Assembly: GCA_964404855.1 (NCBI GenBank) | Contig: CAYOLO010000001.1 | Coordinates: 530,736-594,735, forward strand | DNA: 64,000 nt | DNA from: an uncultured Gammaproteobacteria bacterium | GTDB taxonomy: Bacteria > Patescibacteriota > Microgenomatia > CAYQLK01 | Reading direction: 5' to 3' | In this document: one piece after another, positions 10,665-34,598 of the stretch | How positions within the stretch are numbered: the stretch's first letter is position 1 | How the letters are laid out: each line of letters begins with the position of its first letter | Notes under the pieces: model-generated | Database searches by the model: none | What the model was told of the DNA's origin: nothing | What the model saw: only the letters and a program-made list of their open reading frames with translations | Program-made: the position numbers and the translations under genes

Positions 10665-11246
10665 TCAATTGGTTACGACTGGTCCGATGATATTTCCAAT
10701 AGTACCCTCAACTATATGTTTTTCTGGTTGATTGTCGTCGATAGATTCTAGAGTAACAATAATTCTATCGAAGTCAGGGTGAATATTATCAGTATTATAT
10801 GAAGCATTGTATTGTCCGACAGAATCTGGTTCCATCTTACCTATCGAAAAATACTCTCCAGTTTTTGGGTTACTAACCCAAGCCTGATAAAAGCTGTTAT
10901 TTTTGGGTTTGTCGAGCTTTATTTTGGCATAGACGTTGTATACGCCGAAGTTGCGATATATTCCACCTTCCCCTCTTAATTCTCCACCGTTAACATCCGC
11001 CAGAATTGCGATTTGTCCATCGATAATGTCTTTTTCTTTAACGCTCGCGCTTTTGCTGGCTGCGACATCAATAATATTTGTGAGATTGGAAATATATACG
11101 TCTTTAGGGTCAACAGATGGTGTTGGAGTCGGGGTGGGTTTACCACCAAGTTCACTTGCGATATCAGATGCTTTTTTGCATCCAGAAAGTAATATTGAAA
11201 GCACTATTACTAGGCTTAATGTGAACAGATACGGTTTGACCGTCAT
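10665..11246 (-). CDS. lipoprotein, hypothetical
   Basis: Signal peptide with lipobox LLSGC. Thr/Pro linker. Confidence 0.5.
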   Translation of the reverse strand: MTVKPYLFTLSLVIVLSILLSGCKKASDIASELGGKPTPTPTPSVDPKDVYISNLTNIIDVAASKSASVKEKDIIDGQIAILADVNGGELRGEGGIYRNFGVYNVYAKIKLDKPKNNSFYQAWVSNPKTGEYFSIGKMEPDSVGQYNASYNTDNIHPDFDRIIVTLESIDDNQPEKHIVEGTIGNIIGPVVTN

Positions 11247-11283
11247 ATAGTTTAACTTTAAGAGAAAAGTTCTTGATTGTCAA

Positions 11284-12369
11284 TTGGGTGAGCTTTTAGG
11301 TAATGCTACTATAGGTTATAATGTTTTTAGCACTTTAACTTGGTCCAGAAAAGGAGGTGTGGAATTGGCCATTAAGACCGTTCCAATGCTTACCTTCCTG
11401 AGGTTTTTGGTTACACAAAAAATATTTGTGGTCATAAGTGACCTTGAGTATGTGTTACCAAAAAAACACAGAAAGGGTGAAGTTTCTATCACGCCCGAAG
11501 TCAGAAGCGGAATTGCTGATCGGCTAGTTGCCAACAGTATTCTGCTTAATTTCGGAATTCTGCTTAAAGACGAGAGTGTGCTTGTAGTCACTGATAATTC
11601 AAAACGTCGGTGGCGTAACCTGCATCAAATCAGAAACGGTAGGATTACCGAGCAATCAATGCGCATGAGGCTCTCTGCGCTCCAGTATTTGAGATTTACG
11701 GAGATGGGGGTAAAACTGCTCGAGGAGTACAGTCCGACAACGGTTTTGTACACACTTGATTACTCTTGTTTTCGCTGGCTGACTGATCCGACACTGGTTG
11801 GTAGAATGTATTTTCCGCACGATACCTACTTACAAGCCAAAGCAACGATTGTTGAGCTCGAGGAAAAGCTTCCTTGGGTTGATAAGGAGATGCGCAGGCT
11901 TTCTAAGCAAATCGCATGGCATTACATTGACCGCCCAACATGGCCAAGGGTTTTTCGGAACCCGCAGTTCGAGTACGAATATGGACCTACTGAGCCCAGC
12001 GATTTTGTCGGCTGGCAGTGGGTTCTTGAAACCGGAAAAGAGCCGACGAGCTACTTGTCGATGCCAGATGGACCACTTAGCTACCCAAGCTATGTGAGTT
12101 TGGCAGAAAGTAGGTACCAAATTCTTTATCACCTTCGTCCAGCACTTATGGCAATCGTTCGAGAATTCGAACTGGCAGCTTGGGAGCACAAAGGAAGGTT
12201 TGCTGATAAAGGGTGGAGCAATACTCGTACCAAGAGAACTCTCTGGCAGGTTAGAGAGTTACCTGATGGTAGAGTTCTGAAGCGCCGAGCATTGGTCAAA
12301 TCAGTAAGAGTTAGGGCAGCTTCGAGCCATAATTGGAGATCGAATAGCGGTTCAGTTTCTGCAATTTAA
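11284..12369 (+). CDS. hypothetical protein, compositionally atypical (GC-rich, Trp-rich)
   Basis: Long ORF in a visibly GC-rich patch. Strong SD AAAGGAGGT at ~11350 sits 4-5 nt before an in-frame GTG at 11362, the likely true start. No recognisable family. Confidence 0.5.
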   Translation: MGELLGNATIGYNVFSTLTWSRKGGVELAIKTVPMLTFLRFLVTQKIFVVISDLEYVLPKKHRKGEVSITPEVRSGIADRLVANSILLNFGILLKDESVLVVTDNSKRRWRNLHQIRNGRITEQSMRMRLSALQYLRFTEMGVKLLEEYSPTTVLYTLDYSCFRWLTDPTLVGRMYFPHDTYLQAKATIVELEEKLPWVDKEMRRLSKQIAWHYIDRPTWPRVFRNPQFEYEYGPTEPSDFVGWQWVLETGKEPTSYLSMPDGPLSYPSYVSLAESRYQILYHLRPALMAIVREFELAAWEHKGRFADKGWSNTRTKRTLWQVRELPDGRVLKRRALVKSVRVRAASSHNWRSNSGSVSAI

Positions 12370-12401
12370 GGCTCAGTTTGGCCGAAAGGAAGTGGGTAAT
12401 G

Positions 12402-12437
12402 CCGGAGTCGTCTAAACAGCGTCTCCGGTTTTTTTTT
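12402..12437 (+). terminator. intrinsic terminator
   Basis: CCGGAG...CUCCGG hairpin followed by a 9-T run. Confidence 0.6.
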
Positions 12438-12457
12438 GTATAAAATTACAATTTTGA

Positions 12458-13630
12458 CTAAGTTTCTAGCGTTGGAGTGCTACTCTCTATTTTTGATTGA
12501 AAATATTCCCGTACTGCTTTGGTTCCAAAGGTTTCAATTACGGTCTTAAGTCTGTCTCTACTATCTGGGTCGCTAAATGCTCGGTCGATGACTTCTTTTT
12601 GTACGGCACTTATTTCCCCATTATTAGTTTCAGTACTTTTTTCAGACTCAGAGGTGGGCCCTTGAGGCGTTGAATTAGTTTCGGCGTTGCCACTCTTGCG
12701 GTTTGTAATACTAGTAAGTTTTTCGATTACGGAATTGCCGAGTGTCGCAAGTAGTTCACTATTACTGCCAGTACTTATACCTGCTCTTGCTTGAGTCGCT
12801 AGTTCCCTAGCTAAAGTTGAATAAATAGCAGAAATTGATTCTGGTGGGAGTGGTTGACCGTCATTAACGACTTGAATAATTTGTCTTTCTTTCTCCACCG
12901 CTTCTCTTTCAGCTTGTGTAATTATCGCCAAAATTGCTTTCTTTTGCGCTTCATTTGCTTTTTGCTTATTTGCAAGTTCTTCAGCTTTTGCTATTTGGTT
13001 TTTTACTAAAGTTTCTGCCTCGCCTATAAGTCTTGATCTTTCTGTTCGATCCTCTGAATCTCGAAGTCTAGAAAGAGTTTGTTGAAGCTCATCTTTAAAA
13101 GATGGAATTGGAATATGATTACCATCGCCATCAACTAAAGATTTGTAAAATGGATTTTGGGTTAGTGATGCTGTTAGGGTATCTACAGATCTTTTAATTG
13201 GAGCAAATCCTGCCTCGTTTGGATTACTAGATCTTAATCTATCTTGGATTTTTGAAACAGCAATTCTAATTTGGTCACCAAGGGTTTTATCGGCTTCACT
13301 CGCCGCTCGAAAAGTAGTTTCAAGTTTTTCAAACATGCTTACCAACTCTTCGATATCGCTATCATCTAACTCTGGCGACACATCTGTTTCTGGTTGGGGT
13401 GGTGTGTCATTTTTTACTGCTTCGAAAGTTGGGTTTTGAGGTTCAGTATGTTCAACTTGAACAGGTAAAACATCTGGGGTAGTCAAATCAAGGTGTTCTG
13501 GAAGTGGTTCTGGTTCGTGTGGAGTTTGTAATTCTACTGGAGTTTGACCGTAAACGGTTTGGTGAAGCGGATTCCCCTCACCTGATCTGTAAATTGGTGG
13601 TTGATGTTCGTCGGGCAAGATCTCAGACAT
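12458..13630 (-). CDS. hypothetical acidic protein with Pro-rich N-terminus and coiled-coil region
   Basis: 390 aa. Low-complexity PE/PQ-rich N-terminus and K/E/A-rich predicted coiled coil. No enzymatic motifs. Confidence 0.45.
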   Translation of the reverse strand: MSEILPDEHQPPIYRSGEGNPLHQTVYGQTPVELQTPHEPEPLPEHLDLTTPDVLPVQVEHTEPQNPTFEAVKNDTPPQPETDVSPELDDSDIEELVSMFEKLETTFRAASEADKTLGDQIRIAVSKIQDRLRSSNPNEAGFAPIKRSVDTLTASLTQNPFYKSLVDGDGNHIPIPSFKDELQQTLSRLRDSEDRTERSRLIGEAETLVKNQIAKAEELANKQKANEAQKKAILAIITQAEREAVEKERQIIQVVNDGQPLPPESISAIYSTLARELATQARAGISTGSNSELLATLGNSVIEKLTSITNRKSGNAETNSTPQGPTSESEKSTETNNGEISAVQKEVIDRAFSDPDSRDRLKTVIETFGTKAVREYFQSKIESSTPTLET

Positions 13631-17989: not shown

Positions 17990-18226
17990 TCAAAACGTTG
18001 AGTTGGGAGAATGGGCCCAACGAAGCTGTTAGGGCTACGTTGATTGGTGAATTAAATAGTAGCCAATACGGAATTCAACCGTTAAACAGAGTGGCCAATG
18101 TCACTAAATGTGGAGTTGGTTAAAGAGGTTGCTAGCTGTAAGGCTGGCAACGAAAGCAAGGTGGCAACACGATATAGATCGTCCTTGCAGGATTTACACG
18201 CGTAAGTTCTGCAAGGACGATTTTTT
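17990..18226 (+). promoter_or_regulatory. T-box-type riboswitch leader (putative) with antiterminator/terminator
   Basis: Stem III hairpin GUUGCUAGCU-GUAA-GGCUGGCAAC (18128-18151). AAGG-[UGGCAAC]-ACGAU-AUAG-AUCGU-CCUU (18158-18186) matches the T-box antiterminator layout. Overlapping terminator stem 18179-18190 / 18209-18220 plus U6. Confidence 0.55.
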
Positions 18227-18272
18227 GTTCTTTAACATCACCAAACAACTAAAAAGAAGGTAGGAAAGAAAA

Positions 18273-19610
18273 GTGATAACGAAGATTAGTTTACTAGGTC
18301 ATTACACTGCCAAGCAGGCAGCACGCGAAAAACTTTATGACCAAGTTGGTTATAAGGTTCCGCTTCTTAGCTTGTCTGCAGATCAGCGGCTTGGGATTGG
18401 GCCAATCGATCGAATTGTCAAAAGCGGCAAAAGTCTAACTTATGAGCAGGCCTATGGCGGCATGCTCTTGGTTTTGGCTGCCACCAACCAAATGATCGAG
18501 GCCGAACTACGAAGGGTATGGTCCGAATTCCCATCGTCGGAGGCTCTCAAGTACAAGGCTGTTAGTTTTTTGCAACTAATGGCTACCAAAGAGGCGCTTC
18601 AGTGTATTACCGCTGAAGAAGTGGCTGGGTGCGTTGCTGCAACCCTGCTAGATGTTGTGCCGCTTGATCTGACTGACGAGCCAATCGTCGAAACCTGTGG
18701 AATGGGTGGGGATCAGGGATTCCTAATTGGTGGCCGGCCGTTTAAGACTATCAATGTCTCAACGCTGACCTCGTTTGTGCTAAGTGCGCTCGGGCATCTA
18801 GTCGTCAAACACGGGTCGTATGGAAACACCACAGCCGTGGGATCCACTGATGCCCTAGACCTTCTGGGTGCTCGGACAACACAACAGAGTTTGAAGGAGA
18901 TTGAAACTCTCTTTGCGGCCACAGGGTACTACTACGCAGACGCGCACAACTTCAAAACAGTTCATGATTTGTCGCATCTGCTGGGTCACGAGACGATCAA
19001 CCACATCATTGGTCCGATGACTTTGCCGCTTCGCTTGAACCAGCCGATCTACAAGATCATGGGTGTGAACGATAAGGTGAGTCCTCAGACTGTCGCCCTC
19101 AGCTACCAGATCTTGGTAGAGAAAGGATTAATAAATCTAGTCAACGGTGCAATCGTTGCCGGCTTGGCCGATGACGTTTCCGGTCAGAACTTGGAAGAAT
19201 TGGGTTTTGCAAACCAGGTAATTCTGGATGAGCTTAGCCCAGCCAGCTCGGTTGTTGCGTTCATTCGCGCCGGCCGTTTCGTGGATCAGAAAATCATTAC
19301 TCCAAGAGACTTTGGAATAAGTTTGTCTTGGGATGATATTCTGGTTGATTCCGAAATCGCCAGCGTAAAACAAGCCAACTTGACTGCGTTGGAATCCGGT
19401 TCTGCTGGACATCCATTGCAGAGTTACTTGGCCATGAATGCCGCACTCGGACTTTTTGTCATCAAAGATTTGGGGGGACTTGATGACGACTCAGAGTGGA
19501 CAGAAAGGCTGAAGGTTCGATATCAGGAGTGCTTAGCGGTACTTCAGTCCGGAGCAGTTAGGGGGTTGGTCAAGAGTTATTCTGGTATATCGCGCAGAAT
19601 TAGTTTTTAG
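18273..19610 (+). CDS. trpD: anthranilate phosphoribosyltransferase-like (glycosyl transferase family 3)
   Basis: ETCGMGGDQG...INVST...VVKHGSYGNTTAVGSTDALDLLG matches TrpD GTGGDG/NxST/KHGNR...GSADxLEALG. GTG start with SD GAAGGTAGGA. ~60-aa N-terminal extension. GC-rich. Confidence 0.7.
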   Translation: MITKISLLGHYTAKQAAREKLYDQVGYKVPLLSLSADQRLGIGPIDRIVKSGKSLTYEQAYGGMLLVLAATNQMIEAELRRVWSEFPSSEALKYKAVSFLQLMATKEALQCITAEEVAGCVAATLLDVVPLDLTDEPIVETCGMGGDQGFLIGGRPFKTINVSTLTSFVLSALGHLVVKHGSYGNTTAVGSTDALDLLGARTTQQSLKEIETLFAATGYYYADAHNFKTVHDLSHLLGHETINHIIGPMTLPLRLNQPIYKIMGVNDKVSPQTVALSYQILVEKGLINLVNGAIVAGLADDVSGQNLEELGFANQVILDELSPASSVVAFIRAGRFVDQKIITPRDFGISLSWDDILVDSEIASVKQANLTALESGSAGHPLQSYLAMNAALGLFVIKDLGGLDDDSEWTERLKVRYQECLAVLQSGAVRGLVKSYSGISRRISF

Positions 19611-19620
19611 TGCGATATGG

Positions 19621-19659
19621 GGTCGTAGTTGAGTAAAATCAACTGCGGCCCTTTTTTTT
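19621..19659 (+). terminator. intrinsic terminator
   Basis: 12-bp stem (GGUCGUAGUUGA/UCAACUGCGGCC, with G-U pairs) followed by a T8 run. Confidence 0.6.
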
Positions 19660-19699
19660 GACCAATACAAAATTAGACTGTTGTTTATTCCTTAAAAGT

Positions 19700-20530
19700 C
19701 TATTTTTTGGCTTTACGAACAAACTCTTTTGCTTTTTTTCTAACCAGCCGATTTTGCCAAGGAAATAAATTAGGCTCAATTTCCTTATTAGAAACAGTAC
19801 CTTCTTTTAATGCTGTGCCGACAATAATGACGTCAGCATATTTTTTAAGTTCCGTAATGTTGATTTTGTCTGCACCACTGCCGACAATTATTGGCACTTT
19901 GGTTGTTTGGCGAGCTGATTCTAAATCATTTGTTAATGGTCGATCCCCTGTCCACTTGCCAGTGATAATTATTCCATCACTTCCCTCCTTTTCTGCTTCT
20001 TGGACGGCTTCTGAAAGAGGTCGCGGATTTAATAAAGTTGAGTGCTTGACTTGAACATCAGTAAAAAGGCAGATTTCTGTGGCATTATGATCAGCTTGGT
20101 ATTTTTTGATAGCTTTATGATTGGGATGAATAGTGAAACCGTACATGGTTTCGATTTTATCAACAAAAACAGGTATTCTTACAAAATCTAAATTTTGCTC
20201 ACTCGCAATATCAATGGCAGTTTTGTAGTCATTCCACAACACACATAATCCAATTGGTAAATAAGTAACTGTTTTAATTTTTTTGATTACTGCATTTAGC
20301 TGCTTCTTTGCCTTATCAGGAATAAATTCTGTATGAGGAATATCATAATTATTTTCGATTAAAATAGCATCAAAACCGGCTTCATTTAATACTAAAATAT
20401 CTTCTATGGCTAGCTTGGTAATTGTGTTTAATCCTGGGGAGTTGTCATAACCAATTAGTGGTGCAAGATGAACCATCCCAATTATATATGGGTGTTGTTT
20501 TTTAATTGAGTCTAAGAGTTTGTTCTTCAC
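19700..20530 (-). CDS. BtpA/SgcQ-family TIM-barrel protein (putative)
   Basis: N-terminal IGMVHLAPLIGYDNSPG resembles the BtpA family signature. Assignment from memory only. Confidence 0.5.
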   Translation of the reverse strand: MKNKLLDSIKKQHPYIIGMVHLAPLIGYDNSPGLNTITKLAIEDILVLNEAGFDAILIENNYDIPHTEFIPDKAKKQLNAVIKKIKTVTYLPIGLCVLWNDYKTAIDIASEQNLDFVRIPVFVDKIETMYGFTIHPNHKAIKKYQADHNATEICLFTDVQVKHSTLLNPRPLSEAVQEAEKEGSDGIIITGKWTGDRPLTNDLESARQTTKVPIIVGSGADKINITELKKYADVIIVGTALKEGTVSNKEIEPNLFPWQNRLVRKKAKEFVRKAKK

Positions 20531-21499: not shown

Positions 21500-21573
21500 G
21501 CAAGTGTGGTCCAATGGAAGGGTGTCGGTCTCCAAAACCGAAGATAGGGGTTCGATTCCCCTCACTTGTGCCA
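21500..21573 (+). tRNA. tRNA-Trp (anticodon CCA)
   Basis: Hand-folded cloverleaf. Acceptor GCAAGUG/CACUUGU. Anticodon loop CUCCAAA. T-arm AGGGG-UUCGAUU-CCCCU. Discriminator G. 3' CCA is encoded. Confidence 0.85.
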
Positions 21574-21650
21574 AAACACATAAGCGTTCGAGTCTGTCGA
21601 GCCAACAACGAAGCGGGAGTTATAGCAACTACCTATTTGACCTTCTGAGC

Positions 21651-21686
21651 GCCCAGTAGTTGATTTCAACTGCTGGGCATTTTTTT
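21651..21686 (+). terminator. intrinsic terminator between tRNA-Trp and trpS
   Basis: 12-bp stem GCCCAGUAGUUG/CAACUGCUGGGC with a 4-nt loop, followed by a U7 run. Confidence 0.7.
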
Positions 21687-21738
21687 AGCTCTTTAACACC
21701 ACCAACAACAAATTCAAAATTGCAAAGGACAAGGAAAG

Positions 21739-23271
21739 ATGATCAATCTAGGCGTGGAACCGATGCCGTTGGAGCTCGCTCGTTTAAGGCTAGATGGTCT
21801 TGACGGCGAGATTATTACGCTAGTCGCTGCTCGACTGAAAATGGTGCAGCGTGACAGCGTTTTTCTGCAGAAGCAGATACAAGATCTGGTTAATTTGGGC
21901 ATGAGCCCAGGTTTTGCAGAAGCCTATTATCGTCTTCTGACGGAAGAAGGATTGAGGTCTCAGTTCGAGACACAGGACGTTGGGCAACTGGACGAGGTTT
22001 TTCAGCTCAACGAAATCGACCGCCAGCTTCTGGCTTTGGTTGTGGAGAGGATGGATATTTCCATCGCTTTAACCAAGACCAAACTGAACAACAACATCGC
22101 CATCGTTCATCCTGAACGGGAAGAGGCAGTTCTTCAAGGTCGTGCAGAGAAAGCTCAGAATCTGGGAGTTAACGCTGACTTCACGAAACGTTTGTTCCGC
22201 CTCCTCATGGATGAGGGTGTGCGAATACAACGGGAAGTGTGGCAAACGTCAACCCTCAAAAAAAGGATTCTGACGGGAGTACGTCCAACTGGACCGCTGC
22301 ACCTTGGTCATTATGTCGGTGCTCTGAAAAGTTGGCTTGAGTTTCAAGAGACTTACGAGTGTCTTTTTCTCATCGCTGACTATCAGGCACTGGGAAGCCA
22401 CATCGATAAGCCGGAGCTGATCCGAGACTCTGTCTTCCAGGTCACACTTGACTGGTTGGCTGTCGGTCTCGATCCCAACGCGTCGTCGTTCTTTGTTCAG
22501 AGCTACATTCCGGAGCATGCTGAGCTTGCACTGCTGCTTAGTATGCTGATTCCCTGGAAACGGCATATTGGCAACCCGACACTCAAAAGCGAAATGGCAG
22601 ACATGGAGTCTGAACATAACGCCATGAGTCTCGGATTCGTCAATTATCCCGCTAGTCAAGCGGCCGATATTCTTCTAATGAAGGGCGATCTGGTCCCTGT
22701 AGGTGAGGATCAGCGTCCGCACATCGAGGAAACTCGGCGAGTGGCACGGGAATTCAATCGACGGTACGGCGAAAACCGTACTATCTTTCCAGTTCCGAGA
22801 ATTTACACTGGAGAAGTATCGCGATTGGTGGGTCTGGATGGTGATGCGAAGATGAGCAAAAGCAAGGGCAACACCATTGATTTGCGTGATGACCCTGAAA
22901 CAGTTCGAAAGGCCGTAATGCGGATGTTCACCGACTCAACCCGTCTCCGCGCGACCGATCCTGGTCACGTGGAGGGAAATCCAGTCTTCATCTACCACGA
23001 TATCTTCAATCCTGACGTGGATGAAGTTGCAGACTTGAAGGCGCGCTATGTTCTCGGCAAGGTCGGCGATGTTGAGGTGAAGGTCAAATTGGCTAAAGCC
23101 CTCAACCAGATGCTCGATCCTATCCGCGAGCGGCGTGCGTACTTCGAGGCGCATCCAACACAAGTAAAGGATGCGCTGATTGCAGGCACAGATCGGGCAA
23201 GGAAAATTGCCGAAGAAACAATGAGAGAGGTTCGCGAAGCGATGCGCATCACGCGCTACGCCGAAGGTTAA
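21739..23271 (+). CDS. trpS: tryptophanyl-tRNA synthetase with ~180-aa N-terminal extension (two AroQ chorismate-mutase-like helical repeats)
   Basis: C-terminal ~330 aa carries HIGH (TGPLHLGH) and KMSKS (KMSKSKGN) of class-I TrpRS. The N-terminus has LELARLRLDGLDGEIITLVAARLK and IDRQLLALVVERM...HPEREEAVL...RLFRLLMDEGVRIQRE. SD AAGGA. GC-rich. Confidence 0.8.
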   Translation: MINLGVEPMPLELARLRLDGLDGEIITLVAARLKMVQRDSVFLQKQIQDLVNLGMSPGFAEAYYRLLTEEGLRSQFETQDVGQLDEVFQLNEIDRQLLALVVERMDISIALTKTKLNNNIAIVHPEREEAVLQGRAEKAQNLGVNADFTKRLFRLLMDEGVRIQREVWQTSTLKKRILTGVRPTGPLHLGHYVGALKSWLEFQETYECLFLIADYQALGSHIDKPELIRDSVFQVTLDWLAVGLDPNASSFFVQSYIPEHAELALLLSMLIPWKRHIGNPTLKSEMADMESEHNAMSLGFVNYPASQAADILLMKGDLVPVGEDQRPHIEETRRVAREFNRRYGENRTIFPVPRIYTGEVSRLVGLDGDAKMSKSKGNTIDLRDDPETVRKAVMRMFTDSTRLRATDPGHVEGNPVFIYHDIFNPDVDEVADLKARYVLGKVGDVEVKVKLAKALNQMLDPIRERRAYFEAHPTQVKDALIAGTDRARKIAEETMREVREAMRITRYAEG

Positions 23272-23310: not shown

Positions 23311-24390
23311 GTGATTTTGTGGCCCTTTTTCTTGAAAGGAAAAACGGTGAAAAAATCCATAGGGGGATGGCTCAATTCAGTAGCGGTTTTGGCGGTAATA
23401 TCCGGATTCGCTGCCGGTATTTACAGCTTGTCTGACACCCATGTGGTTGTCAGGTATTTCACTGACTCGACAGACAAAACAATCGGGTCATTGATCTACG
23501 TCGTCGTCGGTTCTTGGATCGGCTGTCTCTTATTTTTGCCTCAAGGGCAATTTCTGGGGCGCTGGCTAAGCCGTGATCAATTCCAGGGATGGCAAAGGCC
23601 TCTCGGAAGGGATTGGTTGTATGTTTGTGGCGCTGGTTTTACCGGAGCCGGAGCAACCTTTTTCTATCTTTTAGGTTTGAGCCGCTATGGCCCATCGCGA
23701 GTAGTGGTACTTTCCTCTGCGGTGCTGGTCTTGCTGCTCATGCTTGATTTTGTTAGGAGGAGGATAGATCTGTCCATGACTTTTCCAGCCTCAATCGTTT
23801 TCTTGGGAATACTATTGTCGAGTATTAACTTCGAGGATGGTATCAAGATCTCGGTAGGGCTGATTCTAATCGTGCTGATTGCACATAACTTTCTGTACGT
23901 GATCTCTATTTGGTTTTTCCAGGCTGGATCACGACGAATGGACTCAATCAATTTCACCTTCTGGCGATTTCTGTCTTTCGCAGTCTTTGCCACAGTCTTT
24001 GTCGTAATTTGGGTCGTTGTCGCCGGTAAGGTTGGAATTTTCCAGGATGTTCTTTTTGGGGGATTTACCGGTGCGCTGCCCTTTATTCTTTTTACTATGA
24101 TCTTTGGGTTCCTTGAGGTTGTCTTAGAATCTCAAGCTCGAAGAGACGGTGGAAAGATGTCAATGGTGAGCTTTCTAAAGCAGAGTGCCATCATTCCGGC
24201 GATGTTTTTGACCTACCTGTTGAACTGGATCTGGGTGGGGTCCCTCGGTGACGTTGCAACTGATACTCAATCGGTTGTGATCAGAGTCGGTGCAGCAGCG
24301 ATTGTTCTCTTGGGACTTTACCTCTTGACCAGACGAAAGCTGGTTGAGGAGCAGGAAATAGAAAGCGAGGAGATATTAGTCGTCGTTTAG
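23311..24390 (+). CDS. 10-TM integral membrane protein, possible DMT/EamA-type transporter
   Basis: Hydrophobicity pattern of two 5-TM halves. GC-rich. 40 nt downstream of trpS. Confidence 0.45.
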   Translation: MILWPFFLKGKTVKKSIGGWLNSVAVLAVISGFAAGIYSLSDTHVVVRYFTDSTDKTIGSLIYVVVGSWIGCLLFLPQGQFLGRWLSRDQFQGWQRPLGRDWLYVCGAGFTGAGATFFYLLGLSRYGPSRVVVLSSAVLVLLLMLDFVRRRIDLSMTFPASIVFLGILLSSINFEDGIKISVGLILIVLIAHNFLYVISIWFFQAGSRRMDSINFTFWRFLSFAVFATVFVVIWVVVAGKVGIFQDVLFGGFTGALPFILFTMIFGFLEVVLESQARRDGGKMSMVSFLKQSAIIPAMFLTYLLNWIWVGSLGDVATDTQSVVIRVGAAAIVLLGLYLLTRRKLVEEQEIESEEILVVV

Positions 24391-28460: not shown

Positions 28461-31400
28461 TTAGTTAGTTAGTCCTCCTAGGAATCCAAATATTTGACTA
28501 AGGTTGCTGATAACAAGATTTAGTGCGTTATCAGTTGCCTTGGGTGTGATTGTGACAGTGTCGATGGAATTACCAACATTAGCAGCTGAGTCTTTTGATA
28601 ATGCTCTTAAGTGATAAACCTTCGATGGTGATAATCCAGATATAACAACTAAATGGTTGGTTGTCCTTGAAGTGTCCTCTTGAGTTTTTTGAGAATATGT
28701 CGTGCCTGTTCCCTCACCAAATTCGACTTGGCTGGTTGATGCCTCATCGGTGTTCCAGCTGATAACAAGTTGGGCTGTCGCTTCTTGATTATTGTTGCCT
28801 GCCGTAGTTGACCCTTCAATGTTAAGTTCCGTAATTTGAGGTGCTCTGGTGTCTGTAGCAGTTGTGACCTTTTGAGGTTCAGAGACTGCTTCGTTGCCTG
28901 CTTTGTCTCTGCCTTTGACCAGAAGTGTGTAGTTGGTTTGAGGAAGCAGGTTTTTGATTATCATTTTGTGTTCTCCGGTAATTAAGGCTATGTTGATTTC
29001 GTCTTTGGCATCCGATGGGGAGTTTTCTGGATAGTAAGTGACGATAGATGAAGTATCAGTATTAGTAGACCATGTGACGAGCAAGGTCGATTGGGCTGTT
29101 CCATTGACTTGCTGTACTCTAACATTGGCAATTTTGGGTCTAGGAAGAGTTTCGAAACTGAGAATATTTCCTTCATATTCAGCTGACTCTGTGTCTAGGG
29201 TGTTAATCTTGTAAAAATACTTTGTACCGTCTTCTAGTTCTTCTAGCTCGGTATTGTAAGTGGTTGAAACAGTCGAAGTCGAAATTTCTTTCACTCCGCC
29301 AAATGCTGAGGTTTTGCCATAGTAAATTTTGGCTTTGCTTGCACCAGTAACCGTAAATTCCAGAATCGCAGAGGTAAGAGAGGAGGATTTTACTTTTGGA
29401 TCGGTAACCGTTGGAGCGGGTTCGGTGGTAAAAGTTTTTTCCGCACTAAATCCGGTATTTCCATCTTCGTCAGTCCACTTGGCTTTGTAGTAGTAAGTGG
29501 TACCTGGCGTTAGATTGGTGATATTGATTGTGTGAGCGGTCACTTGGGTTGAATTACTAGGTTCTTCAGAAAAATATGATCCAGATGCTGTTCCGTAGCT
29601 GACTTTGGAGTCGCTGGTTCTGTCCGTTGACCAGGTAATCGTTGCTTTTTTGGTAGTTACACTGGTACTGACTGGACCAGATGATAGCGCTGGGGCGTCG
29701 GTGAATTTGCCGGTTGGTATTAAATCAACGGCTGAAGTGTAAGCACCACAATTGCTAACACTGTCACAGGCTCTGACTTTGTAATAATGAGCTGCTTGCG
29801 TGAGTCCCGTGTCGACATAAGCAATACCAGATGTTGTGGCGATTTCAGTATAGGTAACATCGTCAGTTGAGTGAAAAATTTCGTAATTTTCAATCCCAGA
29901 TCCAACATCGCTTGGAGCTTCCCAGCTGATTGCAAGTTTCCAAGAGCTTGTGCTTTTGACAGAAACGTCTGCAATATCAATGTTACCTGGAATGCCTGGT
30001 GCTGAAGTGTTGGCGGTAAAAGTTACAGAAGCATAAACTCCGTAGTTAATGACACCTCCAAGGTCTTCGGGATTTTTTGCAGAAACATAAAACGTATTTA
30101 ATCCTTGTTGTGTGGCAAACGAGTCAGCGGAAAGAGACGTTGCCCCTGCACTGGTGAAGGTACAAGAATTTTCTGATGGTAGCGTGTTGACTGTATAGCA
30201 ATATGTCAGGTCGGATGCGCTACCTGAGTAGCTACTTGGTGCCTGCCATGAGAAGCCAAAAGAGTTGGTGGTGTTGGTCGATGGGGTGGCGGTAAGCAAC
30301 TGAGGAGCTGAAGGTCCTTCGCCTGCGAAATAATAGTTGACGGTTACACAAGCGCTGGCGGTATTGCCCGCATTATCGACGGTTCTTAGGTAGAAAATAT
30401 TTGCACTGCTTCCTTCGAGGTATGCTGCATCAGGAATGTTGACGGAGTTGGAGGTAGTAGAGGTCCATCCGGAAACACTGCTGCAGTTGGCGCTACTTGC
30501 GCCGGTTTGATATTGGTAACCAAACGATCCGCCGCTTAGTCCGGAGTGTGCGTCACTTGCTCCGCCTTCGGCGCCGGCGGCTGCCCAAGAGAATGTAAAG
30601 TCATTGGTTGTTGCGAATCCTGCTGGATTGACCGATACAAGCGATGGGTTGGTTGGAGATGTGGAGTCGTATTTATATATGAAGGCAGCGTAAATACTTG
30701 AGGTGTTGCCAGCATTATCTGCAGATTTGATTCTCAGGTAGTATGTGGTTCCGCTACTCATTCCACTTGCTGTATAAGTTGTGCCTGCTTGAAAACTGCC
30801 AGCAGTTTGAGGATCAGCGGTATTGTCGGTTCCGTAATATACGTAATATCCGGAAACACCAGATCCGCCGGTGTCTGTTGCGCCACTCCAACTAAAGTAA
30901 GGACCTGTGTGTTTGTACCAAGTGTTAGTTGTAATTGAGGACCCACCTGATTGGTTGAGTGCCGTTAGTGTGTCGGGTGGTGTTGGCGCTGTGCTATCGG
31001 CTGTGGCGGTAAGAGTGACCGAATTAAGGGTAACTAGTTGATTGCCGTTTCCGTCTAGTACGCCTTGCCAGACAAAACCTCCTGTGCTTACTGGAAATGT
31101 GGAGATATTGGTGTTAATCACAGCTGCTGTATTTGTTTGACTTGTTGAGTTACTGGTAACCCATCCCGAGTTGTAATATTTCCAAGTTGATCCGTTGTCG
31201 TTACTAAGTCTGTAGGTGATTGTGCCTCCGTTTGTAGTTTCGTCTGCAGTAAATCCATCCCAAGAAAGAATTCCAGAAGTTCCATAAGCTGTAGTTGGTT
31301 TGACTGTTTGAGCTGAAGCGGTATATGGGGTGGTATTGAACTCGGTTCTTCTGATATTGCTGATTCTGACTTCGTCGATTCGGCCGTCAAGAAAACCCTG

Positions 31401-34400
31401 ACCAATCCCAGTTTCGTTGCCGCCAAACTTCGTACCAATTAATACTGGATGTGCTGTATCAAGAAGTGTTAAAGATGTTGATAAAGAATTATCAAGCACC
31501 CCGTCGATATACAATCGCATTGTTGTTCCGTCGTATGTAGCTGCAATGTGATGCCAGTTAGTATCCTGAGAAGATGTTGTTGATTGCAAAACAGAGTTGT
31601 TTCCGTAAGCCCAAATAGTGGCATCTGCGTTTGCGGTGTCGCCAAGACCTGCATAAAGCTTGCCTTTATAAACTGACATAGAGGCTACACTTTCATTGAC
31701 TGTGGCCCAACCATTATTGAGGCTATCTCCACCGACTTTAACCCAGCTTGAATCATTCCAGCGCCAGACTTCACCATCACCAGCGGTTAAACCTAAGCCG
31801 GCATATAGATCGCCATTGTAAACAGTTAAATTACGGACTCTTTCGTATGTTGCAGCTGTCCAACTATTATTAAGCCCATCGCCACCGACTTGTGTCCAAA
31901 TTCCACTTGAGGTAGTGTATTTCCAAACTTCTGCGTCGTCAGCGGTAAGGCCAAGTCCAACATATAATCCACCATTGTAGGGGACTAATTGTTCAATTCT
32001 TTCATAAACAGTGTTCCAACTGGAGTTAAGGCCGTCGCCACCCATTTTGGTCCAGCCACTAGTTACTGTGCAACTCCCAATTGTACAGGTCCAAACTTCA
32101 GCATCGCCGGCTGTTATACCGAGACCAACATATAAACTATTTCCATAGACTGCCATACTAATAACTTGTTCAAAACCAGCTGCCCAGCTTTGTCCGCCGG
32201 TGCCTGTGCCATCTCCTCCAATTTTGGCCCAAGTGTCAGCTGTGCCATCGTATGCCCAAACTTCGGCTTCTCCGGCGGTGTCGCCAAGACCAGCAATTAG
32301 TTTGTCGCCGGCAACAGCCAGGGATCGGACATTGTCATAGTTAGTTGTCCAGCCTAACTTAAGACTGTCTCCGCCGATTTGAGACCAGACTGTACCGTTC
32401 CATTTCCAAACTTCGGCTTCGTTGGCTGATAATCCTAAAGCAACATACAGATCTCCGCGATAATCGATCATATGGTTAACGATTTCGTAGGTGTTAGCTG
32501 CCCAGCTAGAGTTGAGACCTTGCCCGCCAATCCTTGTCCAGCTTGTACCGTCATATCGCCAAACTAAAGCATTACCTGCTGTACTTAATCCAGTGCCAGC
32601 ATATAAATAGCTACCGGAAATTGTCATTGTTTCAACACTTTGCAGGTTGGTATAACCCCAAGAGTTGTTGATATAGTTACCACCGATTCTGTTCCATATT
32701 GAACCATTGAATCGCCAAACTTCACCGGATGTGGCTGTACCCTGAAGTCCGACATAAACGTTACTATCAAAAACAGTGATTGTTCTGATATTGGTGTGAG
32801 TGTTGGTAAAACCAAGAGCAGTTCCGTCGCCAGTTCCGTCACCACCGATTTTTGCCCAGGTTGTACAAGTTGCAGCAGTACAACTCCAAACTTCGTTGTC
32901 TCCAGCCGTATTACCTAATCCAGCATAAAGCGTTGATCCTGAAATTGTCACCGTCCAGACTTGTTCATAGGTTGTGTCTGCCCAACTAGAGTTAGTTCCG
33001 TCACCACCGATTTTTGTCCAGGTGGTACAACTACTTGTAGTGTCGCATCTCCAAACTTCGGCTTCTCCGGCGGCACTGTTTCCAATACCTGCAAAAAGAT
33101 AAGTCCCATCATTAGCAAGAGAAGTAACAATTTCATAAGTTGCGTCTGCCCAACTAGAGTTAATCGCATCTCCGCCTATTCTGGTCCAAGTTGAACCTCC
33201 CCATCGCCAAACTTCAGCATCGCCAGCACTATCTCCCAATCCAATGTGTAATGTGGTGCCAACGACCGTCATACTCCTGACGGCTTCGAAGTTGGTGTTC
33301 CAGCCTGAGTTCAGGTTGTCTCCGCCGATTTTTGTCCAACCAGATGTAACAGTACAGCTGCCGATTGTACAGCTCCAAACTTCGGCATCGTTTGCGCTTG
33401 ATCCTAGACCGGCGTAGAGTGTGGTCCCTGAAACGGCTAAAGCAGAAACATATTCGTATGTATTAGTTGCCCAGCTTTGGCCAGCTGATCCGCTTCCATC
33501 TCCACCGATTTTTGTCCAGGTTGAGCCGTTGTATTGCCAAACTTCACCTTCCCCTGCAGTAAGTCCTAGTCCAACAAAAAGGTTAGTTCCGTCAGTTGCC
33601 ATAGCATAAACTTCGTCATAGGTGGCATTGGTCCAGCTAGAGTTGATTCCATCTCCGCCAATCATGGACCAGACTGTACCATCCCACATCCAGACTTCTG
33701 CATCAGACTGCCCATTACCTAATCCAACATACAAGTCACCACTAATTTCGACTGATGATTCCACAATTAATTTACCGTTAAGATCCCAGCTTGCACTGCC
33801 GTTCATTTCGGTTCCAGTTGATATTCCGCCAGCCACCTGTGTCCAGCTGTCAGCATTACTTGGTGCTAATTCGTAGGTAAGTTTACCTTGAACTCTATCG
33901 TAGTAGAGCTGGTACTCGCCTTTATCGATAATGCCTTGGCGCTGTTGATTTGAGTTAGCGGAATATGCAGTATCCAGCTTGACCCAGGCTTCGAGGGTGT
34001 GAGACTGTGACAAAGATAGTGAGGTTGAGTCAGATACTGAGACATTACTTAGTGCCCCATTAAATTCGATTGAGTTATTGAGGTTCCCAGTAGTGTATGT
34101 TGCATTACTTGCTGTGGCTGCATTGGCATTTGAACTAGAATCGACAGGATTGCCAGAACTTTCATCAAAGTGAAAAAGAGCGGCAGTATTTGCGTCTGAG
34201 GCGTAGTTTTGGACTGCAAGTTTGGCACTATTGCCGGAAACGGTGATCATATTAGAGTCAGAAAGAGTGTAATCTCCCCCAACTGAAAAATCCCATTCTT
34301 GAGTAAGATCAGAGGCAAAAATTTTAGGAATAATTGTGTTGAGAGTTGTGTAAGCTCCAAATCCAAAACCAATACCAATACAAATTACTCCAAAAAGGTT

Positions 34401-34598
34401 GAACTGCCATTTGGCAATCGTAATTTTTTTCGTAAACAGAGTCTTGATTGTTTGAGGGTTTTTATTGATAACTGCGTTGCCAAGTTTTGGGATTAGGAAG
34501 AATGTTTTTGAAAAATGGTTTTTGGTACTAATTTTGAGGCCAAAAGTTTTGGACTGGGCTGGTTTATTTTTAATGTGGTTTATCGAGTCGTTAGTCAT
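28461..34598 (-). CDS. giant (2045 aa) signal-anchored cell-surface protein with LamG-like domains, a tandem-repeat array and FN3 domains
   Basis: TM at aa ~67-89. ConA/LamG_3-like region (ALFHFDE...TLEAWVKLD...QGIIDKG). ~14 tandem repeats of VW.W.G..W..IGGDG.NSSW...YE.V......LY.GLG.TAGDAE. Second LamG-like segment (...RLYIDGVLDNS...FLDGRIDEVRISN). At least 6 FN3-like modules. Confidence 0.8.
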   Translation of the reverse strand: MTNDSINHIKNKPAQSKTFGLKISTKNHFSKTFFLIPKLGNAVINKNPQTIKTLFTKKITIAKWQFNLFGVICIGIGFGFGAYTTLNTIIPKIFASDLTQEWDFSVGGDYTLSDSNMITVSGNSAKLAVQNYASDANTAALFHFDESSGNPVDSSSNANAATASNATYTTGNLNNSIEFNGALSNVSVSDSTSLSLSQSHTLEAWVKLDTAYSANSNQQRQGIIDKGEYQLYYDRVQGKLTYELAPSNADSWTQVAGGISTGTEMNGSASWDLNGKLIVESSVEISGDLYVGLGNGQSDAEVWMWDGTVWSMIGGDGINSSWTNATYDEVYAMATDGTNLFVGLGLTAGEGEVWQYNGSTWTKIGGDGSGSAGQSWATNTYEYVSALAVSGTTLYAGLGSSANDAEVWSCTIGSCTVTSGWTKIGGDNLNSGWNTNFEAVRSMTVVGTTLHIGLGDSAGDAEVWRWGGSTWTRIGGDAINSSWADATYEIVTSLANDGTYLFAGIGNSAAGEAEVWRCDTTSSCTTWTKIGGDGTNSSWADTTYEQVWTVTISGSTLYAGLGNTAGDNEVWSCTAATCTTWAKIGGDGTGDGTALGFTNTHTNIRTITVFDSNVYVGLQGTATSGEVWRFNGSIWNRIGGNYINNSWGYTNLQSVETMTISGSYLYAGTGLSTAGNALVWRYDGTSWTRIGGQGLNSSWAANTYEIVNHMIDYRGDLYVALGLSANEAEVWKWNGTVWSQIGGDSLKLGWTTNYDNVRSLAVAGDKLIAGLGDTAGEAEVWAYDGTADTWAKIGGDGTGTGGQSWAAGFEQVISMAVYGNSLYVGLGITAGDAEVWTCTIGSCTVTSGWTKMGGDGLNSSWNTVYERIEQLVPYNGGLYVGLGLTADDAEVWKYTTSSGIWTQVGGDGLNNSWTAATYERVRNLTVYNGDLYAGLGLTAGDGEVWRWNDSSWVKVGGDSLNNGWATVNESVASMSVYKGKLYAGLGDTANADATIWAYGNNSVLQSTTSSQDTNWHHIAATYDGTTMRLYIDGVLDNSLSTSLTLLDTAHPVLIGTKFGGNETGIGQGFLDGRIDEVRISNIRRTEFNTTPYTASAQTVKPTTAYGTSGILSWDGFTADETTNGGTITYRLSNDNGSTWKYYNSGWVTSNSTSQTNTAAVINTNISTFPVSTGGFVWQGVLDGNGNQLVTLNSVTLTATADSTAPTPPDTLTALNQSGGSSITTNTWYKHTGPYFSWSGATDTGGSGVSGYYVYYGTDNTADPQTAGSFQAGTTYTASGMSSGTTYYLRIKSADNAGNTSSIYAAFIYKYDSTSPTNPSLVSVNPAGFATTNDFTFSWAAAGAEGGASDAHSGLSGGSFGYQYQTGASSANCSSVSGWTSTTSNSVNIPDAAYLEGSSANIFYLRTVDNAGNTASACVTVNYYFAGEGPSAPQLLTATPSTNTTNSFGFSWQAPSSYSGSASDLTYCYTVNTLPSENSCTFTSAGATSLSADSFATQQGLNTFYVSAKNPEDLGGVINYGVYASVTFTANTSAPGIPGNIDIADVSVKSTSSWKLAISWEAPSDVGSGIENYEIFHSTDDVTYTEIATTSGIAYVDTGLTQAAHYYKVRACDSVSNCGAYTSAVDLIPTGKFTDAPALSSGPVSTSVTTKKATITWSTDRTSDSKVSYGTASGSYFSEEPSNSTQVTAHTINITNLTPGTTYYYKAKWTDEDGNTGFSAEKTFTTEPAPTVTDPKVKSSSLTSAILEFTVTGASKAKIYYGKTSAFGGVKEISTSTVSTTYNTELEELEDGTKYFYKINTLDTESAEYEGNILSFETLPRPKIANVRVQQVNGTAQSTLLVTWSTNTDTSSIVTYYPENSPSDAKDEINIALITGEHKMIIKNLLPQTNYTLLVKGRDKAGNEAVSEPQKVTTATDTRAPQITELNIEGSTTAGNNNQEATAQLVISWNTDEASTSQVEFGEGTGTTYSQKTQEDTSRTTNHLVVISGLSPSKVYHLRALSKDSAANVGNSIDTVTITPKATDNALNLVISNLSQIFGFLGGLTN
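31570..33850 (-). repeat. tandem coding repeats (~156 nt / 52 aa, about 14 copies) inside the giant gene
   Basis: Periodic protein motif VW(R/K)W.G..W..IGGD..NSSW....YE.V......LY.GLG.TAGDAE read from the translation. Coordinates are approximate. Confidence 0.6.

Follow-up and report, generated by a model that had tools for sequence, protein, structure and literature searches.

A tryptophanyl-tRNA synthetase with a predicted tandem AroQ-type chorismate mutase module in a CPR bacterium

The additional domains found on bacterial aminoacyl-tRNA synthetases mostly serve RNA binding or editing. The gene investigated here encodes a tryptophanyl-tRNA synthetase (TrpRS) whose N-terminal extension resembles chorismate mutase (CM) of the AroQ class. 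It is unusual to find an enzyme domain from the aromatic branch point on the synthetase for an aromatic amino acid in competition for the same precursor, and the locus raises the question what this extension is, how it became joined to TrpRS and whether the fusion may link an aromatic-pathway metabolite to translation. The gene is located in a 64-kb stretch of DNA from a Candidatus Curtissbacteria bacterium, a member of the CPR with a tiny genome. This stretch was analysed as a whole and is called the window in the following. The relevant features are:

21500..21573, plus strand: tRNA-Trp gene (anticodon CCA), first element of a conserved cassette (ARAGORN; Rfam tRNA, 63.4 bits)
21615..21634, plus strand: small conserved hairpin in the tRNA trailer, GGGAGTT-N5-AACTACC (RNAalifold)
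21651..21687, plus strand: intrinsic-terminator-like hairpin, 12 bp and T-run, between tRNA-Trp and the fusion gene (terminator scan)
21693-21720, plus strand: promoter-like site TTAACA-16-CAAAAT (consensus match only)
21725-21729, plus strand: Shine-Dalgarno sequence AAGGA, 9 nt before the ATG (consensus match only)
21739..23271, plus strand: coding sequence of the 510-aa CM-CM'-TrpRS fusion (ATG start, stop codon included)
21739..21978, plus strand: repeat 1 (residues 1-80), degenerate AroQ unit (weak CM_2 match, BLASTP against repeat 2, AF2)
21979..22254, plus strand: linker and repeat 2 (residues 81-172), complete AroQ/CM_2 unit (Pfam CM_2)
22255..23268, plus strand: class-I TrpRS catalytic core and anticodon-binding domain (residues 173-510; PF00579, TIGR00233)
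22288-22311, plus strand: HIGH motif TGPLHLGH, within the TrpRS part
22849-22863, plus strand: KMSKS motif, within the TrpRS part
23311..24390, plus strand: polytopic membrane protein with about 10 TM and weak EamA/DMT similarity (hydropathy profile, EamA)

The open reading frame (21739..23271, plus strand, 510 aa, ATG) was recovered as given in a preliminary description of this DNA, and the peptides quoted there, namely TGPLHLGH (residues 184-191), KMSKS (residues 371-375), VHPEREEAVL, LELARLRLDGLDGEIITLVAARLKMVQ, IDRQLLALVVERMDISIALTKTK and FTKRLFRLLMDEGVRIQRE, are all present in the translation. Identical copies of the protein are found on six further contigs with shared synteny, and one cluster member is annotated as 'tryptophan--tRNA ligase [Candidatus Curtissbacteria bacterium]'. 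A relative with 98% identity is P0001. The fusion gene has a GC content of 0.511 compared with 0.359 for the 64-kb window, and the GC-rich patch does include, as had been noticed, a gene for tRNA-Trp(CCA) at 21500-21573.

The C-terminal part had been described as an ordinary class-I TrpRS, and this holds true. Both Pfam tRNA-synt_1b (PF00579; residues 175-459, E 2.6e-62) and the NCBIfam trpS model TIGR00233 (268 bits versus a cut-off of 176.75) match, and the two class-I signatures TGPLHLGH and KMSKS are invariant in the alignment. The core is 64-67% identical to the TrpRS of Chloroflexota, Dehalococcoidia and SAR202. Judged by its sequence, the region from residue 173 to 510 is a canonical bacterial TrpRS; the strong purifying selection that acts on it (dN/dS 0.023) and the tRNA-Trp gene next to the fusion gene suggest that the fusion protein aminoacylates tRNA-Trp.

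The N-terminal part had been interpreted as a tandem of two AroQ-like repeats. For repeat 2 this is documented by the Pfam model CM_2 (PF01817), which matches residues 89-164 (22003-22230) with 63.9 bits (cut-off 27, E 1.6e-17) and places the unit in the AroQ or type II class of CM. Repeat 1 alone stays below the cut-off (residues 15-37 versus model positions 2-24, E 0.021, 15.5 bits), but its similarity to repeat 2 in BLASTP is significant (37% identity over 41 aa, residues 37-77 versus 126-166, E 8e-8). The proposed shortening of a helical turn between Arg and the LD pair had to be abandoned: the spacing from R15 to D22 in repeat 1 equals that from R11 to D18 in the E. coli CM (EcCM), and what repeat 1 actually lacks is a segment of about 17 residues that covers the end of helix 1 and the Lys39 loop. 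In the AF2 model, helices extend over residues 11-33, 40-52 and 57-77 of repeat 1 and 85-117, 125-140 and 146-170 of repeat 2, which corresponds to the three-helix AroQ fold arranged as a dimer-like six-helix unit; the alignment behind this predicted pseudo-dimer geometry is shallow, with 10 sequences. The best match to the module among solved structures is EcCM, and outside the fusion family its nearest CM relative belongs to a DAH7PS-CM bienzyme. Both repeats are under purifying selection with dN/dS values of about 0.17 (0.166 for repeat 1, 0.165 for repeat 2).

The catalytic residues are split between the two repeats. The active site of EcCM comprises R28, K39, D48, R51, E52 and Q88 together with Arg11' (PMC5526877), and the site of the yeast CM is likewise split, with Arg16 on the one hand and Arg157, Lys168, Asn194 and Glu198 on the other (PMC5986790). 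In the window protein, repeat 1 retains R15 (equivalent to EcCM Arg11), R32 (Arg28), R38/D39 (Arg51/Glu52) and Q75 (Gln88), with no Lys39 loop, while repeat 2 harbors R104, K115, R127, E128 and Q164 at the positions of Arg28, Lys39, Arg51, Glu52 and Gln88 and is devoid of an Arg at the Arg11 position (residue 87). We compiled these residues for six tandem lineages (the window, P0125, P0002, P0003, P0128 and L011). The Arg11 position of repeat 2 is occupied by Q, A or P, with R28, K39, R51, E52 and Q88 conserved, and repeat 1 keeps its Arg11 equivalent in all six and is missing the Lys39 loop. Arg11 is also preserved in the sole CM domain of all three single-CM fusions. Accordingly, Arg28, Lys39, Arg51, Glu52 and Gln88 plus a partner Arg11 are all present at the residue level, and their partition between the repeats across six lineages implies one predicted composite active site per tandem module. 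The Asp48 position is variable (H, Q, A or D; His in the window protein), Ser84 corresponds to Gly in the window lineage, and P0004 has Gln at the Arg51 position. A Glu at the position of E52 is a mark of CM, and isochorismate-pyruvate lyase has Val there.

The CM-TrpRS fusion is rare and occurs in about eight lineages. Homologues are 44-61% identical overall, and the extension is conserved at the protein level. A scan of species-representative genomes with N-domain peptide patterns retrieved one locus (L013), which belongs to the same lineage as the window. Metagenomes had been proposed as a further source, and the peptide patterns recovered two matches there (L016 and L017), one more locus of this lineage and an unrelated CM protein. 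The TrpRS proteins with other N-terminal extensions that an exhaustive search recovered (P0167, P0182, P0256 and others) have no CM domain. The same patterns had no match in viral contigs, so that the data do not support an origin of the tRNA-synthetase cassette from a phage or giant virus. The architecture had been suspected to be new, and a literature search for it found no previous description.

The genomic contexts bear on the history of the fusion. A tRNA-Trp gene is located directly upstream of the fusion gene also in L007, L008, L009 (two copies), L011, L013 and L018, and is missing upstream of trpS in the unfused relatives L014 and L015. The latter lack a CM domain and share the order T-box, trpS, trpE, trpG; the single-CM fusion L018 exhibits the order T-box, tRNA-Trp, CM-trpS, trpE, and its T-box has a UGG specifier (89 bits, E 7e-20). 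At the window locus, an Rfam scan detected no T-box and no family other than tRNA. The terminator-like hairpin between tRNA-Trp and the fusion gene aligns with counterparts in L009, L011 and L013, and the hairpin in the tRNA trailer shows a few compensatory changes in RNAalifold, which is weak evidence from four sequences only (the window, L013, L009 and L011). The membrane protein encoded at 23311-24390 scores 22.5 bits with EamA, below the cut-off of 28.2. A homologous ORF immediately follows the fusion gene in L009 (45% identity, E 2e-19) and likewise in L012 (34% identity, E 4e-11). Around the cassette, neither att-like direct repeats nor other signatures of mobility were found. The contexts form a series from T-box, trpS, trpE, trpG via T-box, tRNA-Trp, CM-trpS, trpE to tRNA-Trp, CM2-trpS, membrane protein, and document stepwise operon remodelling and transfer between phyla. 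In a neighbor-joining tree of TrpRS cores the nine fusions group together (bootstrap only 19/100), with single and tandem forms interleaved, and a single origin of the fusion is plausible from these sequences.

The explanation that we favor, and consider probable as a whole, is a housekeeping TrpRS with a duplicated AroQ module that has one complete chorismate/prephenate pocket. A bacterial TrpRS would thus carry an AroQ-class (type II) CM module at its N-terminus, which in the window lineage was presumably duplicated internally to give a single-chain pseudo-dimer. Complementary degeneration of the two halves would then have left one complete pocket, with Arg15 of repeat 1 as the counterpart of the 'other-subunit' Arg11 of EcCM and with Arg104, Lys115, Arg127, Glu128 and Gln164 contributed by repeat 2. 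The reciprocal pocket would be catalytically dead, because it has neither a Lys39 loop nor an Arg11 partner. Since one complete pocket remains, the module is most likely a chorismate- or prephenate-binding unit; it is probably at least weakly catalytic, and the chances that it has real CM activity are about even. As part of the same explanation, the fusion probably descended from a Chloroflexota-type trpS-trpE-trpG operon under a Trp-specific T-box (T-box, trpS, trpE, trpG), in which the synthetase would have been co-expressed with anthranilate synthase. The latter enzyme and CM are competitors for chorismate. Later, tRNA-Trp, CM-trpS and the membrane protein gene would have spread together as a cassette to low-GC CPR genomes, e.g., to the Candidatus Curtissbacteria of the window.

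Regulatory coupling between the module and TrpRS is possible, if rather unlikely on present indications, and allosteric coupling of the kind seen in DAH7PS-CM bienzymes, suggested by analogy, is somewhat less likely again. Two modes can be envisaged. Occupancy of TrpRS by Trp or Trp-AMP might switch the tethered CM on, which would be a bacterial fused-domain counterpart of the activation of yeast CM by Trp; alternatively, the binding of chorismate or prephenate might tune the charging of tRNA-Trp. A Trp-activated CM would explain why induction of CM together with anthranilate synthase, through a T-box that responds to Trp starvation, need not divert chorismate.

The most serious competitor, with a real if minority chance of being correct, is a plain bifunctional protein in which an independent, constitutively active CM and an independent TrpRS were neutrally joined within an aromatic/Trp operon and do not communicate. 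The complete set of catalytic residues and the emergence of the fusion beside trpE fit well with this scenario. The same applies to the relative orientation of the domains, which is not confidently predicted: the full-length model has a pTM of 0.67 and a softer junction (pLDDT 75-77), so that no fixed CM-TrpRS interface is predicted. Moreover, a scan of the TrpRS core for fusion-specific substitutions that might mark a docking surface yielded only two weak C-terminal positions. However, the L018 fusion would be co-induced with anthranilate synthase by the Trp-starvation T-box, and an unregulated CM would draw on chorismate just when Trp is scarce. The linker that joins the CM module to strand 1 of the Rossmann fold in TrpRS is also very short (about 5 residues), the QRExW junction motif is invariant or almost so throughout the family, and the module is kept under purifying selection in a CPR host without a visible aromatic pathway.

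This last observation is a puzzle in itself, as a seemingly intact chorismate pocket is under purifying selection in a bacterium that is expected to lack aromatic biosynthesis. The metabolism of CPR bacteria is limited (PMC11809585) and no shikimate-pathway genes were found in the 64-kb window, so that a source of chorismate in the host is not evident. It could hence be argued that the AroQ-like module no longer binds a ligand in this host and serves folding, solubility, oligomerisation or the docking of a partner, e.g., of the co-travelling membrane protein, whose conservation next to the fusion gene would be in agreement with such a structural role. Selection on the N-domain is also more relaxed than on TrpRS (0.165 versus 0.023). 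We nevertheless regard this as improbable, given that K39, R51, E52, Q88 and the trans Arg11, which have no use other than in binding or catalysis, persist in every tandem lineage, even though overall identity is 44-61% and the repeat that provides Arg11 is rearranged.

A different chemistry on the AroQ fold, i.e., that of an isochorismate-pyruvate lyase or a 4-amino-4-deoxychorismate mutase, is distinctly less probable. Secondary matches to the isochorismate lyase model NF005475 (48.5 bits, cut-off 126) and to PchB structures (E 9e-4) as well as the variable position 48 point in this direction, but CM-family models outscore the lyase model on the module, EcCM is the best structural match and Glu128 sits where PchB has Val and true CMs have Glu. 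An appended tRNA-binding helper domain, which the helical nature of the extension, its N-terminal position on a synthetase and the linkage of the gene to the cognate tRNA could bring to mind, is highly improbable: the conserved positions cluster at the residues of the AroQ pocket, and we reject a tRNA-binding appendage because the N-domain has an acidic character throughout the family (pI 4.9-6.1, net charge -1 to -6). That the extension is an untranslated annotation artefact with the true start near residue 175, an a priori possibility only, has a negligible chance, as AAGGA precedes the ATG at 21739 by 9 nt, the sole in-frame start near residue 175 is a GTG at V167 without Shine-Dalgarno sequence, and the extension is conserved in divergent homologues with both repeats under constraint.

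The favored explanation of a TrpRS with one complete chorismate/prephenate pocket would make the fusion family a compact natural case of an obligate homodimeric enzyme turned into a single-chain pseudo-dimer. The family includes both single-CM and tandem forms, the two halves of the latter have lost complementary catalytic residues, and the outcome resembles a yeast-type CM. If the proposed coupling is true, this would be the first aminoacyl-tRNA synthetase directly controlled by, or controlling, a biosynthetic branch-point metabolite, and in the CPR host it might sense an aromatic precursor of host origin.

Comparison with known systems illustrates the position of the fusion. EcCM, the AroQ-alpha CM domain of the P-protein (PDB 1ECM), is an intertwined homodimer with two identical sites and is fused to prephenate dehydratase, whereas the window module consists of two unequal repeats in one chain with one complete predicted site and is fused to TrpRS. 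In the eukaryotic-type, single-chain AroQ-beta CMs (yeast Aro7, 1CSM; maize CM, 6H3P; Ustilago Cmu1, 6FPF), each monomer has about 250 residues folded into 12 helices, and an allosteric site for Trp/Tyr is located at the dimer interface. The module is smaller, with 175 residues and six helices, shares only 13-18% sequence identity with them and gave no evidence for such an allosteric site. According to the model, the module is structurally analogous to the catalytic pseudo-dimer core of AroQ-beta without being a member of this class, and the likeness most likely goes back to a separate duplication in an AroQ-alpha-like lineage of bacteria, as its own repeats are 37% identical. The secreted AroQ-gamma CMs (*MtCM, 2FP2/2F6L; Yersinia, 2GBB) are exported proteins whose helices follow a rearranged topology and which occur either alone or as fusions with cyclohexadienyl dehydratase; the module has neither the export signal nor this topology and matches AroQ-gamma structures less well than AroQ-beta. 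With the Chloroflexota-type T-box operons of L014 and L015 the window locus shares a TrpRS core of 64-67% identity, but it has a CM module and an upstream tRNA-Trp and has lost T-box and trpE, both of which the single-CM fusion L018 retains. A parallel in architecture is provided by the DAH7PS-CM bienzymes, with an N-terminal CM in Bacillus, Listeria and Geobacillus and a C-terminal CM in Prevotella and Porphyromonas, for which allostery is documented (PMC8408635, PMC5526877). Here, too, an AroQ domain is covalently fused to a second enzyme, but the module is a tandem, coupling is a proposal and the partner is an enzyme of translation instead of the shikimate pathway.

The reading frame proposed in the preliminary description is present and encodes 510 aa. 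Its C-terminal part is a tryptophanyl-tRNA synthetase (TrpRS; Pfam tRNA-synt_1b, residues 175-459, E 2.6e-62) that scores 268 bits against the NCBIfam trpS equivalog (cut-off 177), and the HIGH (TGPLHLGH, residues 184-191) and KMSKS (residues 371-375) motifs show no variation in the alignment with relatives. The suggested Pfam search located the chorismate mutase (CM) domain CM_2 at residues 89-164 (E 1.6e-17, 63.9 bits; gathering score 27). The gene lies next to a tRNA-Trp in a GC-rich patch (GC 0.511 vs 0.359 for the window), as had been described, and the locus is organized as follows:

21500-21573: tRNA-Trp(CCA) gene
21651-21678: terminator-like hairpin of 12 bp, between tRNA-Trp and the fusion ATG
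between this hairpin and the ATG: promoter-like site
9 nt 5' of the ATG: AAGGA box
21739-23271 (+): fusion gene
23311-24390 (+): membrane protein with about 10 TM segments and sub-threshold EamA/DMT similarity, directly 3' of the fusion gene

Near the domain boundary, the sole alternative in-frame start, a GTG at Val167, lacks a Shine-Dalgarno sequence. With the AAGGA box preceding the ATG, a start codon at 21739 appears credible, and the objection that translation might begin downstream of the extension is not borne out. Compared with the ortholog of locus L013 (97% identical overall), repeat 1 has a dN/dS of 0.166, repeat 2 one of 0.165 and the TrpRS part one of 0.023; both repeats are translated and constrained, albeit less tightly than the synthetase.

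The claim of two AroQ-like repeats holds for repeat 2, the clear CM_2 match, but repeat 1 (residues 1-84) alone yields just a weak one that covers the first helix (residues 15-37 to model positions 2-24, E 0.021). Within the protein, BLASTP pairs residues 37-77 with positions 126-166 of repeat 2 (37% identity; E 8e-8 in this single comparison); the alignment spans helices 2 and 3 and places QRD of repeat 1 opposite the catalytic ERE. This similarity indicates that repeat 1 is a copy of AroQ from which about 17 internal residues have been deleted, taking away the end of helix 1 together with the Lys39 loop. The supposed shortening between Arg and LD by one helical turn is incorrect, because the spacing of R15 and D22 in repeat 1 equals that of R11 and D18 in the E. 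coli CM.

A confident AlphaFold2 model of residues 1-175, based on ten family sequences (mean pLDDT 86.7, pTM 0.84), comprises six helices in a 3+3 arrangement (11-33, 40-52, 57-77; 85-117, 125-140, 146-170). Its structural comparisons (three values each, the last in Å) gave 14.1, 151 and 2.6 Å for the maize cytosolic CM 6h3p; 13.1, 154 and 2.7 Å for the yeast allosteric CM 1csm; 11.8, 148 and 2.5 Å for Ustilago Cmu1 6fpf; 9.4, 90 and 1.3 Å for E. coli 1ecm, the superposition proposed at the outset, in agreement with an AroQ-type fold; 9.2 and 8.4, 126 and 119, and 3.0 Å for the exported AroQ-gamma enzymes 2gbb and 9bt3; and 7.3, 82 and 2.2 Å for the CM-like domain of the B. subtilis DAHPS 5gmu. 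The predicted module as a whole thus resembles single-chain, internally duplicated CMs, as anticipated by the idea of a fused pseudo-dimer. The tandem form appears to have arisen independently, given the 37% identity of its own repeats.

The active site of the E. coli CM consists of Arg28, Lys39, Asp48, Arg51, Glu52 and Gln88 of one subunit and Arg11 of the other (PMC5526877). We mapped these positions with a HMMER alignment to 1ECM and MAFFT alignments of all family members. In the six tandem lineages (window, P0125, P0002, P0003, P0128 and a reconstructed L011) repeat 2 has consistently lost Arg11 (Q, A or P) and kept Arg28, Lys39, Arg51, Glu52 and Gln88, whereas repeat 1 has kept Arg11 in all six and lacks the Lys39 loop throughout; Arg28 is retained in all five complete repeat-1 sequences, that of L011 being a fragment. 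The single-CM fusions P0004, P0006 and P0038 have Arg11 in their sole domain together with the remaining residues, except for Arg51→Gln in P0004. The equivalents in the window protein are R104, K115, R127, E128 and Q164 of repeat 2 and R15 and R32 of repeat 1; the Asp48 position is His and variable across the family, and the Ser84 position is Gly in the window lineage. These complementary losses would be difficult to account for if Arg15 of repeat 1 did not contribute to the repeat-2 pocket. Such a contribution would sharpen the pseudo-dimer to a single functional composite site, the other site being dead. The yeast CM, with Arg16 acting together with Arg157, Lys168, Asn194 and Glu198 (PMC5986790), shares this split. 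The position of Glu128 is Glu in true CMs and Val in the isochorismate-pyruvate lyase PchB, which favors CM chemistry.

The identical protein is found on at least 12 contigs, the longest of 660 kb, with the same synteny in all six listed. The host is a CPR/Patescibacteria organism, because one cluster member is annotated as 'tryptophan--tRNA ligase [Candidatus Curtissbacteria bacterium]'; the glycosyltransferases, transporters and translation factors of the window are consistent with such a host. The syntenic locus L013 (CAYQLK010000014.1) stems from a MAG that carries the name 'uncultured Gammaproteobacteria bacterium', probably owing to an error in binning or labelling. Searches of about 5.8 billion clustered proteins and, with a junction-spanning query, of 1.84 billion representatives detected only about eight fusion lineages, namely the tandem forms of the window cluster, P0002, P0003, P0128 and P0005 and the single-CM forms P0004, P0006 and P0038/P0127. 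The database protein P0005 lacks repeat 1, because a T-run frameshift cuts its ORF (MDLQYARQKIDDID...) off from the remainder of the gene; this frameshift between the repeats (low-GC locus L011, 790-1100) is an assembly error or marks a pseudogene. Pattern scans added one genome locus (L013) and, as the proposed metagenome search had envisaged, one metagenome locus (L016), both of the window lineage, and none in viral contigs. A literature search found no paper describing a CM-TrpRS architecture, in line with the initial impression; the protein joins two known families in a rare combination.

The nearest unfused TrpRSs are 64-67% identical, and the named ones belong to Chloroflexota, Dehalococcoidia or SAR202. 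In a neighbor-joining tree the nine fusion cores, with single and tandem forms intermingled, cluster within the unfused radiation at a bootstrap of just 19/100. The unfused relatives L014 and L015 (contigs of 3.5-3.6 Mb) harbor a T-box leader, trpS, trpE and trpG, and the single-CM locus L018 (P0127) has the order T-box, tRNA-Trp, 18 nt, CM-trpS, 26 nt, trpE, its TrpE being 56% identical to that of L014 (E 1e-56). The leaders, all slightly below the Rfam gathering score (75-89 vs 93 bits), are:

L014, 3693-3967, and L015, 3694-3967: 75 bits, E ~1e-14 to 1e-16, specifier region GAA-UGG
L018, 5782-6039: 89.1 bits, E 7e-20, GAA-UGG-A

Judged by the specifier UGG, all three are predicted to be Trp-specific. 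In L018 the T-box precedes the tRNA-Trp gene, so that the riboswitch would control the expression of its own effector tRNA; the arrangement recurs in L008, where the contig edge cuts the tRNA. A tRNA-Trp lies directly 5' of the fusion gene in the window, L013, L007, L009 (two copies), L011, L008 and L018, and is absent from this position in the unfused relatives. The two tRNA-Trp(CCA) genes of L009 (133-206 and 247-320) differ from each other. In the low-GC fusion loci T-box and trpE are gone, and the terminator hairpin 3' of tRNA-Trp aligns among the window, L009 and L011. The whole trailer (window 21574-21690, L009 321-440, L011 695-789) can be aligned even though protein identity between the loci is only about 61%; it has no Rfam match, and its small hairpin at 21615-21634 exhibits a few compensatory changes among the few sequences compared. 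The membrane protein has homologues in the distant family members L009 (2057-2311; 45% identity, E 2e-19) and L012 (2058-2258; 34% identity, E 4e-11), there too encoded directly 3' of the fusion gene, and could be a transporter that forms part of the cassette.

Under the most economical scenario, a T-box-controlled trpS-trpEG operon would have gained a tRNA-Trp gene and an AroQ domain, the latter would have been duplicated internally, and a cassette of tRNA-Trp, CM-trpS and membrane protein would have moved into CPR genomes. The GC content of the fusion gene exceeds that of its flanks in the window, L009, L010, L011 and L012; other patches of 0.43-0.49 exist in this genome of about 0.33 (11000-13000, 18000-20000, 29000-34000), and high GC alone is therefore neither fusion-specific nor proof of recent transfer. 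Further genes of the window and of L007 are:

window 18273-19610 (+): divergent anthranilate-phosphoribosyltransferase-like protein of 445 aa, encoded three genes 5' of the fusion in a further GC-rich patch
window 28461-34598 (-): probably a large surface protein of 2045 aa with fn3, laminin-G/concanavalin-like and purple-acid-phosphatase-N domains (GC 0.43-0.49), adjoining a MacB/FtsX-type ABC transporter pair
L007 2839-4308 (-): Pyridoxal_deC (aromatic-amino-acid-decarboxylase family) gene, convergent to the single-CM fusion P0006 and adjoining a DUF4096 transposase-like gene

The TrpD-like protein reaches 97 bits with TIGR01245 trpD, below the cut-off of 199, and its PDB sequence matches are all TrpD (best E 1e-13). 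Its gene is conserved in Curtissbacteria-type loci only, and a Trp-pathway-like enzyme is odd for a CPR genome.

Preservation of the pocket speaks for continued binding of chorismate, prephenate or a close analogue by the module, which may also catalyze the mutase reaction. The module is acidic in all family members (pI 4.9-6.1), which is not what one would expect of a generic tRNA-binding appendage. The proposed metabolic coupling to Trp charging is a hypothesis. The short CM-TrpRS linker of about five residues and the (nearly) invariant Q164-R165-E166-x-W168 at the end of helix 3 count for tight coupling; the full-length model with two well-folded domains, a pTM of only 0.67 and a softer junction (pLDDT 75-77, residues 161-180) counts against it, as does the TrpRS core, in which no fusion-specific substitutions were found. 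The source of the ligand is puzzling, since CPR bacteria are described as metabolically limited and host-dependent (PMC11809585) and, apart from the TrpD-like gene, none of the shikimate or aromatic pathway is present in the window. In L018 the T-box would co-induce the fusion and anthranilate synthase upon Trp starvation, and a constitutively active CM would rival TrpE for chorismate precisely when Trp is scarce. By this reasoning, which is not evidence, bulk catalysis is less likely than a role that is conditional or one in sensing. Outside the family, the sequence is closest to the CM domain of the DAH7PS-CM bienzyme P0278 (37% identity, E 7e-15); in this architecture the AroQ domain catalyzes only weakly and serves as an allosteric sensor (PMC5526877, PMC8408635).
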